From the IMG/VR virus record IMGVR_UViG_3300002301_000012, positions 1 through 64,000 of that record: a stretch of DNA of 64,000 bases; one strand, given 5' to 3'. The notes below the pieces were generated by a model. That model saw only the letters and a list, made by a program, of their open reading frames with translations. It ran no database searches and was not told where the DNA came from. The position numbers were made by a program, and so were the translations under genes. Below are positions 48,721 through 53,913 of this stretch, piece after piece. Source of the stretch: a virus. The stretch's first letter is position 1; the number at the start of each line of letters is the position of its first letter.

Positions 48721-51700
48721 ATGGCCAACTTCCAGGTACCAGAAGGCGCAAAGCGTCTTGGACCGATCAATGCTTTGATCGGAACGCAACCAACACAAGT
48801 CGCTGGTGTTTCGCCGTCGTTCTGGTTTTCTCCTCTTCAGCCTGTAACGCCAACAGCGCCATCCGATTACAAACCTCGCCAGTGGGGCTATCAACCTGGT
48901 GCCAACCTCATTTGGCAGCCGAAGTCGGACGAAGGCTACGGTTACGATCTGCTGCGTCAACTGTCTTTGTCTTGGGATCTTCTTCGCATGGCGCTGGAGA
49001 TGAAAAAGGACGAAATCGGAGATGTCGAGTTCGAACTTCGGCTGAAGCGACAGGACAACGAGAAGCAGGCAGACTACAAAAACAGGACGCTGAAAGGCGC
49101 GAAAGAACTGCAAGACCTTAAGCAGTTCTGGGCCAAGCCGGATGGTTTCAATACGTTCCGGCAGTGGCTTCGTATGCTATCCGAAGATCTTCTGGTCTGC
49201 GATGCCGTAGCCTGCTATCTTCCGCGCGACAACAAAGGCAAAGTCGCGATGGTCATGCCGACTGACGGCGCATCGTGGAACAGGCTGCTCACCGATCAGG
49301 GAATCACTCCTCGCGATCCAACCAGCGCTGCATACCAACAGGTTTGTTACGGCTTCCCTGCATGGGATGGTACAACGCAGGACGTCGTGTTCAGTATGCA
49401 GAACCCGACAACATACCGGCGCTATGGGTACTCCCGCGTTGAAAGATGCCTGACAACAGTGGCCTTCGGTATTCGTCGTCAGATGTTCCAGATTGCGGAG
49501 TACTGCTATTCATCCGACACTGAGGTACTGACAAGCCGTGGTTGGCTGAAGTGGCCTGATGTCACCATGGACGATACATTTGCAACGCGGCGCATGGAAA
49601 GTGGCGAGTTTGAATGGCAGAAGGCTGAAGGTTACATTCGGAAACAGTTCAACGGTAATTTGATCCGTTTCAAAAATGTAAGCCTTGACATTTTGGTGAC
49701 GCCAAACCACAGGATGCTCGTTGGTGACCTGCCCGGCAGATACCAGCGCGGTTGTCCTACAGCAAAAGTTCCTCGCATCAAAGAGTGTTTAGTCGAAGCT
49801 TCCAATTTGGCTCTTCAGAGAGCGTTGTCAGGCCCGAACATTTCGGCGTGGATTCCACAGGTTTCCGAATGGAATGGCGGCGTCCGTATCGAAGACAAGG
49901 TGTGGTTGTCTCCGAACAACAAAGAGATAACCGTTCGCATGACAGGTGATCAGTACTGTGCCTTCATGGGCATGTACTTGGCAGAGGGATGCGTTGGCGG
50001 CAGCGAAAAACCTACACTTGTTCATATCTGCCAGCCAAAAGACAAAAAAGGAATCCATCAGATTTTCAGTGACATGTTGTCTGAGATCTTTGGTGCAGAC
50101 GTACACCACGACGGAAAGATGTTTTCATGGTCACGAAAATCATTGGCCTTGTACCTTCGGCAATTCGGGCTAGCAAATGAAAAGTTCATACCTGAAGAGA
50201 TTAAGAACGCGCCCAAAGATCAATTACAGATATTCTGGCGATACTACGCATTGGGTGATGGCGAATCGGCGACTGCTATCGGCGAAAAGAAACGTTCTCA
50301 GCAGGTATTCACTGTTAGTAAAAAACTGTCTGACGATCTGACGGAAGTTGTGCAAAAAATAGGTTTGCGCCCAAATGTCGGTGTTCGCGCTGCGGGCAAA
50401 GCCTTTTTCGGTAAACCAGGACTGGGACGTGAAATAAACGCTAGTGAAGGCTATACGATAACTGCGACCGACCAGCCATGCACAAGAAATTGGGATGTTG
50501 AATTTGTCCCTTACGATGGTGAAGTGTTCTGCGTATCGGTGCCGAACCACACGTTGTATGTTCGGCGCAATGGGAAACATGCGTGGTGCGGGAACACGGC
50601 CGGCAATATACCGGAAGCGTTTTTGTTCATGCCTTCGGACATTCCACCGCAGCGACTGAAGGAGTTTCAGGATTACATCGATTCGATCCTAAGCGGTAAT
50701 CTTGCGGAGCGTCGCAAGATCCGTATGATGCCTGGATTCGGCGACAGCGGCAAACCGAACATCGTGTTCCCGAAGGAAGCGCTGCTCAAAGATGAACTGG
50801 ACGTGTGGTTGGCGCAGCTGGTTTGTGCGATTGTCGGCGTGAGTGCGCAGCCGTTCCTCAAAATGGTGAATCGCGCAAGTTCAGAAGAAGCGAACGACGC
50901 AGCCCGCGAAAAGTGGCTGAAGCCTGATGTCGATTTCTTTTGCGAGTACATTAATACCTGCCTTGAGCGCATGGGAATGGATCAGTACGAAATAGCTGCG
51001 AAGGCGCAGCGCGATACCGATCCACTGAAGCAGGCGCAGGCAGATGCGGCGGTGTGGGGTAAGGTTTACACGCCGAACGAACTTCGCGAGCAGCGCGGAG
51101 AAGATCCTGTGGAAGGCAAGAACGCAAACCGGCTCGGTGTACTCAGTCCGATGAACGGTTTCATGCCACTCGATCCTGATGATGACGATCTGGCTTTGAT
51201 GCAGCAAATGAAGGCTACTCCTCCCAAACCTGACGGAAGTGGTGGAGGTGGAGGTTCGCCGGCACCGAACGGCGGCGGTAGCGGTGGCAGCCCGAAGCCG
51301 AAGACTAAACCATCTGCAAAGAAATCGTTGGCAGCAACGTGGGATCTTGAAAAAGATCACAAGTACGGATGTATCATGGTTCCAATCGATCCAGCGTCCG
51401 AAGCCGGTCTTCGCATGAAAGCAATGAGGGATGCAATACCAGATGCAGACCTGATGGAAGGCAACGGAACCTCGCGCGAGGAAGAACCGCATGTCACTGT
51501 GCGATACGGGATCAAGGACGGCGGCGAAGGTCTGCCGGAATACCTGACTGGCCTTGCACCATTCACGCTGAAGTTCGGTAAAACAATGGCATTTGCGCCT
51601 TCTGAACAGTCTGATGGCGCGGCTCCGCTGGTGGTTCAGGTTGATTCGCCTGAGTTGCACGCAGTTAACGCACAGTTGGCACAGGAAGCGACGTTCAAAG

Positions 51701-53913
51701 AGGCTACATTCGACTACCATCCACACGCGACGCTGGCATACGTCGCGCCTGAACGCGCACAGCGGTACGTTGACGACGACTATCTGGACGGCGTGGAATA
51801 TCCAGTGCGGTCCATTGTGATTACAATGCCAGATGGAAGTTCGCAGGAAATCATGCTGACAGGCGGATTCGCAGCACCTGCGAAGTTCAGCGGAAGCGCT
51901 GCGCTGCGGCCAGCGTCATCGCGCATCAAAAATAAAAATAAAAAACCGACGAAAGGCGTCACGCCTCCACCGATAGACCTATCGGACAGCACACAGATCG
52001 ATTCCGGTTATCGCAGCAGTCCAGGTGCAACGCAGTCAAGTACTGTAGCAGTCGAGGACGGTGGCCAAGTGGAGCCGGGAGGCGTGGACGAAAACAATCC
52101 GGCTGAAGATCCACCACGCGCAGATCACAAACCAATGCAGCGAACGGTCCATGCGTTCTTTAAGGCGCAGGCGGCCGCTGCTTTCGACCGACTTAAGCGG
52201 ATCGGTGAACTTCACAAGGTCATCAAGGCGTCAGATGATGGCGATGATCAGGACGATGATGCTGAGCGCATCGGCGAAGCAGAACTGCTGTCCGCTGCGA
52301 ATGACATAAACTGGCGCGAACTGATACCACAGGTTCTGGCGCATCTGCAAGAGGCTGGCAACTTCGGTGTTGTGAACGGTCTGCATCGCGCGGCAGTGGC
52401 CGGTGTCGGTGAAACGTCGGCTTCCATCGGACCAGCACAAACGCTTGCTGCTGAATACGCTAAGGACCGCGCTGCCGAAATGGTCGGCATGAAATGGGTC
52501 GACGGCGAACTGGTCGAAAATCCGAACGCAATGTGGGCTATCAGCGACACAACGCGAGACCAGTTGCGTGAAATAATCGCGCAGGCACTATCGGAAGAAA
52601 CGCCGATTGACGTGCTTGCCGAACGTATCCGCGATGCTGGTTCGTTTTCTGAATCGCGTGCGGAGACTATCGCCAATACTGAGATCGCAACGGCACAGGA
52701 GAAAGGCGTTACTGGCTCGTGGAAGGCTACAGGAGCAGTTGAGAAGGTGCGCTGGTCTCCATCGTCGCTCGGGCCATGTCCGGAGTGTCTGGACAACGTT
52801 TTGGCAGGTTCAATACCGTTTGGAGATACTTTCCCCACTGGTGTATTAGCTCCTCCGAACCATCCGAACTGCTTCGCTGGTGATGCAGTCGTATCGGCCA
52901 GCGGAGTTTCGGTAGCGTACAGTCGTTGGTTTGAAGGGGAAGTCATCATCCTGCGAGTCTCTGGCGCACCAGACATTACCGTCACGCCAAATCACCCGAT
53001 ACTGACGCAACGTGGATGGGTCGCTGCTGGTGATTTGGAACTCACGGATAAGGTCTTGCAGTGCGTTGATCCAAATCTGGCTGTCTCCCTGATGAACCCA
53101 GACGATAATCACATGGAAACCGGCATCCAGGAGATAGCGCACACGCTTGGGATGTCGCACAGCGTGTTGTTCAGTATTGTGCCAACCTCCACCGAAGACT
53201 TCCACGGCGATGGAATCGCCAACGGCAAAGTCGATATTGTAGGCACCGCAGGCGCGCTGTCTTGTGACCAGTCCGATAGAATTCAGCACAGAGAAAACAC
53301 GCTGCTCTGCGCTCTGCATGAGCGGGGGCTTTTGCTGAATAGCGATTGCGTGCATCCGTTTGGTATCTTCGGGGACGATTCTTCCGCGACTGGCAGCATG
53401 AGCAGCAGCGGTCTGATGAAGTCGTTGGTCTTTGGTCAGTTGTCCCATGCGGACAATGGCGGCTTCATGGGTTCCACGGACCATCAAACCAGAACGCTTG
53501 AAAGCTTTGATGATCATTGTATGGTGGGTGTCATGCCTTTTCCCGATAGACAAAGCAGACTCACCAGCCAAGTAGCTTGTGTGCATAGCCATCAATTCGG
53601 GCAGCGTGAATTTGCAGTCTCTTCCTTTGCGCATCGGATCGCCCGGTTGGCGAAGAGAGATTCCAGAACGAATCAAGTTAAGACGAACCATACCGTAACC
53701 AAGCTGGTATCGCGCACAAATAGTCTGGAGCGTGTCGCCAGCCTGATACGCTTTGCAGATGTCGTCAAGTTGTGGAAGAATCGTTTTGCGGGGCATGTGT
53801 TTAACCTCAGTACAGATACCGGCACGTATTTTGCTAACACTATACTTGCACACAACTGTCGGTGTGCTTTGATTATCACAAAGGTTCGCGGTAAAGAGGA
53901 GAAAGCAGCATGA
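48721..53913 (+). CDS. Portal + 2H phosphoesterase + MuF (minor head) fusion with two inteins
   Basis: Portal motifs at about 48721-51180; HVT and HAT 2H motifs at 51490 and 51724; MuF motifs RAETIANTEIATAQ, CPEC and PPNHPN/CRC; two HINT domains. Confidence 0.88.
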   Translation: MANFQVPEGAKRLGPINALIGTQPTQVAGVSPSFWFSPLQPVTPTAPSDYKPRQWGYQPGANLIWQPKSDEGYGYDLLRQLSLSWDLLRMALEMKKDEIGDVEFELRLKRQDNEKQADYKNRTLKGAKELQDLKQFWAKPDGFNTFRQWLRMLSEDLLVCDAVACYLPRDNKGKVAMVMPTDGASWNRLLTDQGITPRDPTSAAYQQVCYGFPAWDGTTQDVVFSMQNPTTYRRYGYSRVERCLTTVAFGIRRQMFQIAEYCYSSDTEVLTSRGWLKWPDVTMDDTFATRRMESGEFEWQKAEGYIRKQFNGNLIRFKNVSLDILVTPNHRMLVGDLPGRYQRGCPTAKVPRIKECLVEASNLALQRALSGPNISAWIPQVSEWNGGVRIEDKVWLSPNNKEITVRMTGDQYCAFMGMYLAEGCVGGSEKPTLVHICQPKDKKGIHQIFSDMLSEIFGADVHHDGKMFSWSRKSLALYLRQFGLANEKFIPEEIKNAPKDQLQIFWRYYALGDGESATAIGEKKRSQQVFTVSKKLSDDLTEVVQKIGLRPNVGVRAAGKAFFGKPGLGREINASEGYTITATDQPCTRNWDVEFVPYDGEVFCVSVPNHTLYVRRNGKHAWCGNTAGNIPEAFLFMPSDIPPQRLKEFQDYIDSILSGNLAERRKIRMMPGFGDSGKPNIVFPKEALLKDELDVWLAQLVCAIVGVSAQPFLKMVNRASSEEANDAAREKWLKPDVDFFCEYINTCLERMGMDQYEIAAKAQRDTDPLKQAQADAAVWGKVYTPNELREQRGEDPVEGKNANRLGVLSPMNGFMPLDPDDDDLALMQQMKATPPKPDGSGGGGGSPAPNGGGSGGSPKPKTKPSAKKSLAATWDLEKDHKYGCIMVPIDPASEAGLRMKAMRDAIPDADLMEGNGTSREEEPHVTVRYGIKDGGEGLPEYLTGLAPFTLKFGKTMAFAPSEQSDGAAPLVVQVDSPELHAVNAQLAQEATFKEATFDYHPHATLAYVAPERAQRYVDDDYLDGVEYPVRSIVITMPDGSSQEIMLTGGFAAPAKFSGSAALRPASSRIKNKNKKPTKGVTPPPIDLSDSTQIDSGYRSSPGATQSSTVAVEDGGQVEPGGVDENNPAEDPPRADHKPMQRTVHAFFKAQAAAAFDRLKRIGELHKVIKASDDGDDQDDDAERIGEAELLSAANDINWRELIPQVLAHLQEAGNFGVVNGLHRAAVAGVGETSASIGPAQTLAAEYAKDRAAEMVGMKWVDGELVENPNAMWAISDTTRDQLREIIAQALSEETPIDVLAERIRDAGSFSESRAETIANTEIATAQEKGVTGSWKATGAVEKVRWSPSSLGPCPECLDNVLAGSIPFGDTFPTGVLAPPNHPNCFAGDAVVSASGVSVAYSRWFEGEVIILRVSGAPDITVTPNHPILTQRGWVAAGDLELTDKVLQCVDPNLAVSLMNPDDNHMETGIQEIAHTLGMSHSVLFSIVPTSTEDFHGDGIANGKVDIVGTAGALSCDQSDRIQHRENTLLCALHERGLLLNSDCVHPFGIFGDDSSATGSMSSSGLMKSLVFGQLSHADNGGFMGSTDHQTRTLESFDDHCMVGVMPFPDRQSRLTSQVACVHSHQFGQREFAVSSFAHRIARLAKRDSRTNQVKTNHTVTKLVSRTNSLERVASLIRFADVVKLWKNRFAGHVFNLSTDTGTYFANTILAHNCRCALIITKVRGKEEKAA
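49504..50595 (+). mobile_element. Intein 1 (364 aa) with a LAGLIDADG-type endonuclease, in the portal domain
   Basis: Starts CYSSDTEVLT; block B VTPNHRM; FMGMYLAEG and YYALGDG motifs; ends LYVRRNGKHAWCGN followed by Thr. Splicing restores AEY-TAGNIPE. Confidence 0.9.
52846..53796 (-). CDS. DUF559/Vsr-like endonuclease with tandem HTH repeats, antisense to intein 2
   Basis: Two HTH-like repeats (YQAGDTLQTICARYQL, YLAGESALSIGKRHDT); nuclease core AEQRV...YNIDFAV...IAVEVFGGGWH...LLDAGFHVIIVW; GAGG-N8-ATG at 53796. Confidence 0.82.
   Translation of the reverse strand: MPRKTILPQLDDICKAYQAGDTLQTICARYQLGYGMVRLNLIRSGISLRQPGDPMRKGRDCKFTLPELMAMHTSYLAGESALSIGKRHDTHHTMIIKAFKRSGLMVRGTHEAAIVRMGQLTKDQRLHQTAAAHAASRGRIVPEDTKRMHAIAIQQKPPLMQSAEQRVFSVLNSIGLVTRQRACGAYNIDFAVGDSIAVEVFGGGWHNTEQHAVRHPKRVRYLLDAGFHVIIVWVHQGDSQIWINALQDLIREFQITSSDPSTLRQYRVIWRDGNVWCARDSQDDDFPFKPTTVRYRNSAGRYDCITSEAVRMVRRS
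52870..53856 (+). mobile_element. Intein 2 (329 aa) in the MuF HPNCRC motif, with no in-frame nuclease
   Basis: Starts CFAGDAVV; block B ITVTPNHPIL; block F/G GHVFNLSTDTGTYFANTILAHN followed by Cys. Confidence 0.92.

Follow-up and report, generated by a model that had tools for sequence, protein, structure and literature searches.

The stretch of DNA analysed here, comprising 64,000 nucleotides at positions 1 to 64,000 of the IMG/VR virus record IMGVR_UViG_3300002301_000012 (hereafter, the window), carries a phage head gene with two inteins, the second of which (intein 2) is overlapped on the opposite strand by an open reading frame (ORF) for a putative Vsr-like nuclease. The host gene is a single frame of 1730 codons, in which a portal, a 2H-phosphoesterase-like domain, and MuF are fused, with Pfam matches to Phage_portal, 2_5_RNA_ligase2 (E, 5e-8), Phage_Mu_F, and Intein_splicing. 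It is very likely that intein 2 and the antisense ORF form a composite selfish element, consisting of a class-1-type MuF intein and a separate Vsr-like endonuclease gene that occupies the other strand and shares the intein's codon register.

Intein 2 is a class-1-type intein, having Cys1 (TGC at 52870), a TxxH motif in block B (TPNH, residues 39–42), an HN end (residues 328–329, at 53851–53856) followed by Cys+1, and a predicted HINT fold; the splicing blocks are intact, as had been described in an earlier note made from the sequence of this DNA. Cys1, Thr39, Asn41, His42, and Asn329 are invariant across the intein family (50 sequences), and GHV(Y/F)NL...HN is a conserved C-terminal intein motif across the loci compared. 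The Pfam match of intein 2 to Intein_splicing (25.6 bits; gathering cut-off, 35.8) is split by a long insert. The nearest intein-less MuF relatives (34–45% identity) have an uninterrupted HPNCRC sequence or close variants, e.g., HPRCEC, at the insertion site. The intein model generated by AlphaFold2 (AF2) matched the Mtu RecA mini-intein (Z-score, 12.2; root-mean-squared deviation (rmsd), 2.0; 106 residues aligned), and inteins or other HINT-type domains, Hedgehog among them, head the list of its structural matches. The in-frame linker between the two HINT lobes (residues 131–283) is modelled with a pLDDT score (predicted local distance difference test) of 30–45, save for one 10-residue block (251–260) at 63, and the in-frame middle of intein 2 gave no Pfam match even at E ≤ 1. 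A nuclease in the in-frame loop was rejected on these two grounds, in line with the earlier note, which had seen no nuclease motif there.

The minus-strand ORF spans 52846–53853 if begun at a GTG codon and encodes 316 residues if begun at the ATG at 53796; the ATG is the likely start, because the homologues align from it ('MPx...'). Its codon boundaries coincide with those of the plus frame, and it runs 24 nt into the N-extein (8 codons; seven sense codons and the stop), the stop usual in the family, opposite intein residues 2–25, having been lost in the window copy. The extent, the register, and the overrun into the N-extein are all as the earlier note had given them. Nuclease residue h sits opposite intein residue 310−h; therefore, ~100 codons (intein residues 31–130 and nuclease residues 180–279) are predicted to specify folded protein on both strands.

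The AF2 model of the antisense protein has a mean pLDDT of 89.2 and is bipartite, with an N-terminal region of two helix-turn-helix (HTH) modules and a C-terminal nuclease core, corroborating the HTH-like repeats and the Vsr-like core suggested previously from the letters alone. The HTH region showed structural matches with modest Z-scores to Tc3 transposase (5.8), Mos1 (5.3), and a paired domain (4.9), and a Pfam match to HTH_58 (E, 0.0011) below the cut-off. The nuclease core closely resembled Vsr (1cw0_A, VIA; Z-score, 10.6; rmsd, 2.6; 114 residues aligned) and the catalytic domain of I-Bth0305I (3r3p_A, VIA; Z-score, 9.9; 93 of 97 residues aligned). Foldseek ranked 3r3p first (probability, 1.0), with Vsr chains lower in the list, and 3r3p was also the best PDB sequence match in a HMMER search. 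As for the earlier expectation that a profile search would return DUF559/Vsr, the Vsr fold was found, whereas the DUF559 match was seen only below its gathering cut-off (15.5 vs 20.6), as was that to MTES_1575 (E, 1.7e-5; 25.2 vs 38.2). Glu164, Asp189, and His206 align with the catalytic residues Glu170, Asp196, and His213 of I-Bth0305I and are invariant or at least 90% conserved in the family. The window copy keeps all of the invariant or near-invariant residues (Gly78, Glu164, Tyr186, Asn187, Asp189, Glu199, Gly203, Trp205, His206, and Arg218).

Table 1. Coordinates of the host gene, intein 2, and the antisense nuclease gene in the window
Feature	Position	Strand	Basis
Host gene, portal/2H-phosphoesterase-like/MuF precursor with two inteins	48721–53913	+	1730-residue ORF, translation, Pfam
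Intein 2, 329 residues, inside the MuF HPN/CRC motif	52870–53856	+	Sequence, family-invariant residues
Insertion site, N-extein side, codons His-Pro-Asn; putative homing site	52861–52869	+	Sequence
Insertion site, C-extein side, codons Cys-Arg-Cys	53857–53865	+	Sequence
HINT N-terminal lobe, intein residues 1 to ~130, antisense to nuclease residues 180–309	52870–53259	+	AF2 (block pLDDT, 66–98)
In-frame linker, intein residues 131–283, predicted disordered, opposite the nuclease DNA-binding region	53260–53718	+	AF2
HINT C-terminal lobe, intein residues 284–329, blocks F and G	53719–53856	+	AF2 (pLDDT, 94–97 from residue 291)
Antisense ORF, 316 residues, Vsr-like (EDxHD-type) putative homing endonuclease	52846–53796	-	Translation, homologues, AF2, selection
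Two three-helix HTH modules, nuclease residues 2–103, putative DNA-recognition domain	53488–53793	-	Helices at residues 10–43 and 65–101
Vsr-like nuclease core, nuclease residues 158–279, with Glu164, Asp189, Glu199, and His206	52960–53325	-	Fold matches, HMMER alignment
Start ATG (53796–53794) and Shine-Dalgarno GAGG (53808–53805)	53794–53808	-	Sequence
-10-like box TATAGT, 48 nt before the ATG	53839–53844	-	Sequence; antisense of block G Thr-Ile codons

The antisense protein has 59 protein homologues at 27–47% identity, a tblastn search found a nuclease match in 115 phage records, and 504 IMG/VR stretches encode nuclease relatives. Relatives occur in phages of Salmonella, Escherichia, Vibrio, Gordonia, and others (Proteobacteria plus Gordonia hosts). 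Annotation was examined in four records (Snoke, Affeca, Vibrio phage 1.113.A, and VSe101); in each of them, the nuclease is antisense to and within a head-morphogenesis or MuF gene, and the nuclease gene is absent from the feature table. Among the matches listed, most lie under head, MuF, or minor-capsid genes and the remainder under 'hypothetical protein'; no PHROGs family covers the nuclease. Some records mislabel the host gene, e.g., as 'NAD+--asparagine ADP-ribosyltransferase' in NBSal007. Over the nuclease match, the antisense frame in the same register is free from stops in all of 83 loci, as against 3–43 stops in each of the two remaining antisense frames, and it forms part of an open stretch of ~250–1200 residues, the shortest being cut by contig ends. 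Direct translation of 55 unique copies found 54 with an intact nuclease frame, against the breakage in homologues that, according to the earlier note, would have refuted its reading. Two size classes are seen among loci L004–L083, inteins of 268–278 residues with a one-HTH nuclease and those of 312–338 residues with two modules, and a few reach 363 residues; the window copy is the long form.

At the nucleotide level, a blastn search of phages gave only a 60-nt match (53182–53241), over the catalytic-motif region, with 83–88% identity to Salmonella, Escherichia, and Vibrio phages. This segment encodes the nuclease catalytic motif on one strand and 'EDFHGDG' of the intein frame on the other, and all three of its codon positions are conserved (0.69, 0.80, and 0.68).

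In the same register, stops on either strand arise solely from TTA, CTA, and TCA, for which synonymous Leu/Ser codons can be substituted without cost to either protein. The three account for just 1.16% of the codons in genes of the window, so that a stretch of 316 codons would lack them with a probability of ~0.025, and other parts of the same host gene have open runs in this register as long as 344 codons. ORF length alone is weak evidence for a gene, and the strength of the case comes from homology, fold, and family-wide conservation. Two further long minus-strand ORFs inside the host gene, at 50881–51726 (281 residues) and 52248–52985 (245 residues), are probably shadows, since the rarity of TTA, CTA, and TCA yields long open runs and explains them at least in part. 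In the nuclease core of 53 unique loci, none of these codons was observed, against ~175 expected from extein usage.

Selection was assigned to one strand or the other by position in the element. Among 55 unique inteins, the first codon position of the nuclease is more conserved than the third over nuclease residues 11–250 (e.g., 0.60 vs 0.32), and amino-acid identity over the same residues is higher in the nuclease frame; over intein residues 1–59 and 300–329 the pattern is reversed, with the intein frame favoured. The conserved 'RQYRVIWGDG' of the nuclease is the antisense of HINT block B, 'TPNHPILT'. In eight close Guernseyvirinae alleles, synonymous and nonsynonymous changes in the central intein number 21:135 in the plus frame and 96:60 in the nuclease frame, compared with 561:300 and 212:36 in the plus frame of the exteins of the same alleles. 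This close-allele comparison, which is free from saturation, agrees with the deep comparison. The middle of the element is thus under selection in the nuclease frame and its two ends in the intein frame, and the two-strand codon constraint that the earlier note had proposed to look for is seen at both depths.

Opposite intein blocks F and G lie sequence elements resembling expression signals for the nuclease. The GAGG sequence 8 nt ahead of the ATG and the TATAGT box are both present in the window, as had been reported. The ATG lies opposite CAT, the His codon of block F, and GAGG opposite the Leu codon CTC plus the final base of AAC, the Asn codon before it. Of 53 loci, 45 have a Shine-Dalgarno (SD)-like site at -12/-13; CAT serves as the His codon of block F in 35 of 41 (34% of extein His codons), and the Leu codon is CTC in 44 of 49 (26% in exteins). 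Among the 53 loci, -10-like hexamers (TATAAT, TATGAT, and TACAAT) number 35 in the bin from -55 to -51. The family hexamer, positioned at -51 or -54, is antisense to ATT-ATA, the Ile-Ile codons of block G, where ATA is used in 24 of 36 (11% in exteins), and in several copies the box is preceded by TGn (extended -10). These codon-bias and signal counts are sequence statistics and not evidence of transcription. The window has CAT, CTC, and a -10-like box shifted to -48. An extended -10-like sequence, TGTGATAAT (53880–53872, minus strand), which is antisense to the C-extein, outside the intein, and 76–84 nt upstream of the ATG, is a candidate for a second promoter element. Overall, the synonymous codons of blocks F and G appear strongly biased toward keeping the nuclease start, SD sequence, and -10-like box, which is possibly a new detail.

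Evidence for mobility comes from Guernseyvirinae. The MuF gene of VSe101 matched 405 phage records, 58 of them at full length, and the two-piece matches among those listed span 1029–1061 nt at 87–95% identity, which fits the absence of the 816-nt intein. The allele of the Salmonella phage Kenya-K1, a Jerseyvirus, examined base by base, is 1044 nt long (1860 minus 816) and reads PPAHFG/CRSTT, where intein-plus alleles read PPAHPN/C...HN/CRSTT (slashes, insertion site or intein boundaries). The 816-nt intein is therefore a presence/absence polymorphism in this group. The Kenya-K1 and VSe101 flanks have diverged over ~20 nt on each side of the insertion site, which may represent a co-conversion tract or a cut-resistant allele.

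The layout is known in kind and its principle is already published, because Gosselin, Arsenault and Gogarten (bioRxiv 10.1101/2025.01.02.630785) described full inteins with an 'anti-sense VSR-like HEN' (homing endonuclease) in actinobacteriophages, with minor capsid hosts included; the novelty implied in the earlier note is thereby lost. Both cases share a contiguous, non-split intein, an antisense Vsr-like endonuclease related to 3R3P, and a MuF-like minor capsid host, and even the preprint's match to Vsr 1CW0 (Z-score, 10.6) has the same value as that of the window nuclease. The preprint is confined to PhagesDB actinophages, whereas the window copy resides in an uncultured 94-kb phage and has relatives in Salmonella, Escherichia, and Vibrio phages. 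The terms 'promoter', 'ribosom', and 'register' are absent from the main text of the preprint, which does not appear to treat promoter or ribosome-binding signals or codon register, and neither dual-fold codons nor embedded signals are raised in the text that was searched.

Among other known systems, I-Bth0305I (PDB ID: 3R3P; Taylor et al. 2011, PMC3239194), the EDxHD prototype, is a homing endonuclease encoded on the sense strand of a group I intron. It shares with the window nuclease the Vsr-like core and the bipartite construction from an N-terminal DNA-binding region and a C-terminal nuclease, and differs in that it has NUMOD motifs, in place of which the window protein has two HTH modules, and in that its Asp222 pairs with a His that varies in the family. 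Fractured phage genes with split inteins and free-standing Vsr-like endonuclease genes, which the preprint also cites, were reported by Dassa et al. 2009 (PMC2677866); these likewise place such a gene within the intein region of a phage gene, but divide the host gene and the intein between two ORFs, whereas the window intein frame continues unbroken past the nuclease gene on the other strand. The antisense LAGLIDADG endonucleases that 10.1101/2025.01.02.630785 cites from inteins (Gorbalenya 1998; Gogarten et al. 2002) also have the endonuclease ORF opposite the intein strand, with a nuclease of the LAGLIDADG rather than the Vsr-like family. In canonical bifunctional inteins (in-frame LAGLIDADG or HNH), the HINT domain is likewise interrupted at the usual site by endonuclease-coding DNA; with intein 2, by contrast, the endonuclease forms a polypeptide apart from the intein and has its own start, and the in-frame insert is predicted to be a disordered linker. 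Intein 1 of the same gene (49504–50640, in the portal part) appears to be of the canonical bifunctional type. It has a weak in-frame LAGLIDADG_3 match (E, 0.0043) below the cut-off, and its C-terminal junction looks atypical, with no clear HN ahead of the +1 residue.

Several observations weigh against the interpretation as a composite homing element. The Pfam matches of both the nuclease and the intein all score under gathering cut-offs. In the HMMER sequence alignment, the final Asp of the EDxHD motif (Asp222 of I-Bth0305I, the equivalent of Vsr Asp97) pairs with His215 in a family-variable column, while Arg218 is family-invariant. TATAGT in the window is accompanied by neither a TG extension nor a good -35 sequence, and a sigma-70 consensus scan neither flagged it nor found any minus-strand promoter upstream of the ATG. 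The loci compared are related by descent, and the family-wide statistics given above are not independent trials. Finally, a search with the window MuF extein gave only intein-less loci at 34–45% identity and no close phage relative that would bear on recent gain or loss of the intein in the window's lineage.

Four other explanations were weighed. That the minus ORF is a non-coding shadow, open by chance through the rarity of TTA, CTA, and TCA, would be compatible with the chance probability calculated for the window alone, with the long open runs in the same gene, and with the lack of annotation in most phage records and of a PHROGs family. Such a shadow is contradicted by the high-confidence nuclease fold, by protein homologues at 27–47% identity in lineages whose DNA no longer aligns, and by third-position-type variation falling in the nuclease frame; it was rejected on the codon-position and synonymous:nonsynonymous patterns, and its probability is close to negligible. 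It is highly improbable that the locus is a fractured gene, in which the halves of a split intein are translated separately and trans-spliced, with a free-standing endonuclease gene between them, even though Vsr-like endonucleases were first found in that setting. The plus frame is continuous over all 329 intein codons and over the nuclease match in 83 of 83 loci, whereas separate halves would need no such continuity and ~175 stop-generating codons would then be expected. A split intein was rejected because of this one open frame through the whole intein, as in all 83 loci.

The remaining two explanations accept a real antisense protein. In one, selection maintains it for a different function (for instance, as a nuclease in phage-versus-phage exclusion, a regulator that binds DNA, or an enzyme of repair), and the intein is mostly inherited vertically. 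The unconserved last Asp of EDxHD, the occurrence of the element at one site of one gene family in all 83 loci, and the vertical inheritance patterns reported for several VSR-like-HEN inteins in the preprint (10.1101/2025.01.02.630785) point that way; set against them, the exact presence or absence of the 816-nt element among Guernseyvirinae alleles of 87–95% identity, the nesting of the nuclease wholly within the mobile unit in most loci, and the proven homing activity of the nearest characterised relative, I-Bth0305I, make this role improbable. A small but real chance is left for the window copy itself being a decaying or immobile descendant, whose intein still splices and whose nuclease is inactive or unexpressed: it has lost the usual nuclease stop, so that the ORF extends eight codons into the extein, its -10-like box is displaced to -48 and weaker, and close relatives that might reveal recent movement are missing. 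Its ORF, its SD site and ATG, and all of its invariant and near-invariant family residues are nevertheless in place.

Returning to the composite selfish element, we infer a free-standing homing nuclease from the family resemblance together with the polymorphism in Guernseyvirinae, and we infer splicing, expression, and cleavage to proceed as follows. The host precursor would be translated through the shadow of the nuclease gene, after which the intein would splice itself out and restore HPNCRC. The nuclease would be produced independently, using the signals written opposite blocks F and G. During mixed infection, it would cut intein-less MuF alleles near the insertion site, and repair would copy in the whole element. 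Whether the DNA holds a three-layer code, with ~100 codons specifying both the HINT N-lobe and the nuclease core and with the nuclease expression signals lying in synonymous positions of blocks F and G, is evenly balanced in our judgement; if it does, a full cassette for antisense expression would travel with the intein to each site that it homes to.

Genomes of cells and viruses rarely encode two structured proteins sense/antisense along hundreds of bases. For the window, the immediate value is one more annotated gene, on the minus strand inside intein 2, and the analysis exposes an annotation gap, the nuclease gene being missing from most phage records and having no PHROGs family. The layout supports the view of intein evolution in which the splicing domain comes first and the endonuclease invades later. 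Since it is maintained across hundreds of divergent phages, it also offers a natural system in which to ask to what extent one set of codons can serve two proteins.

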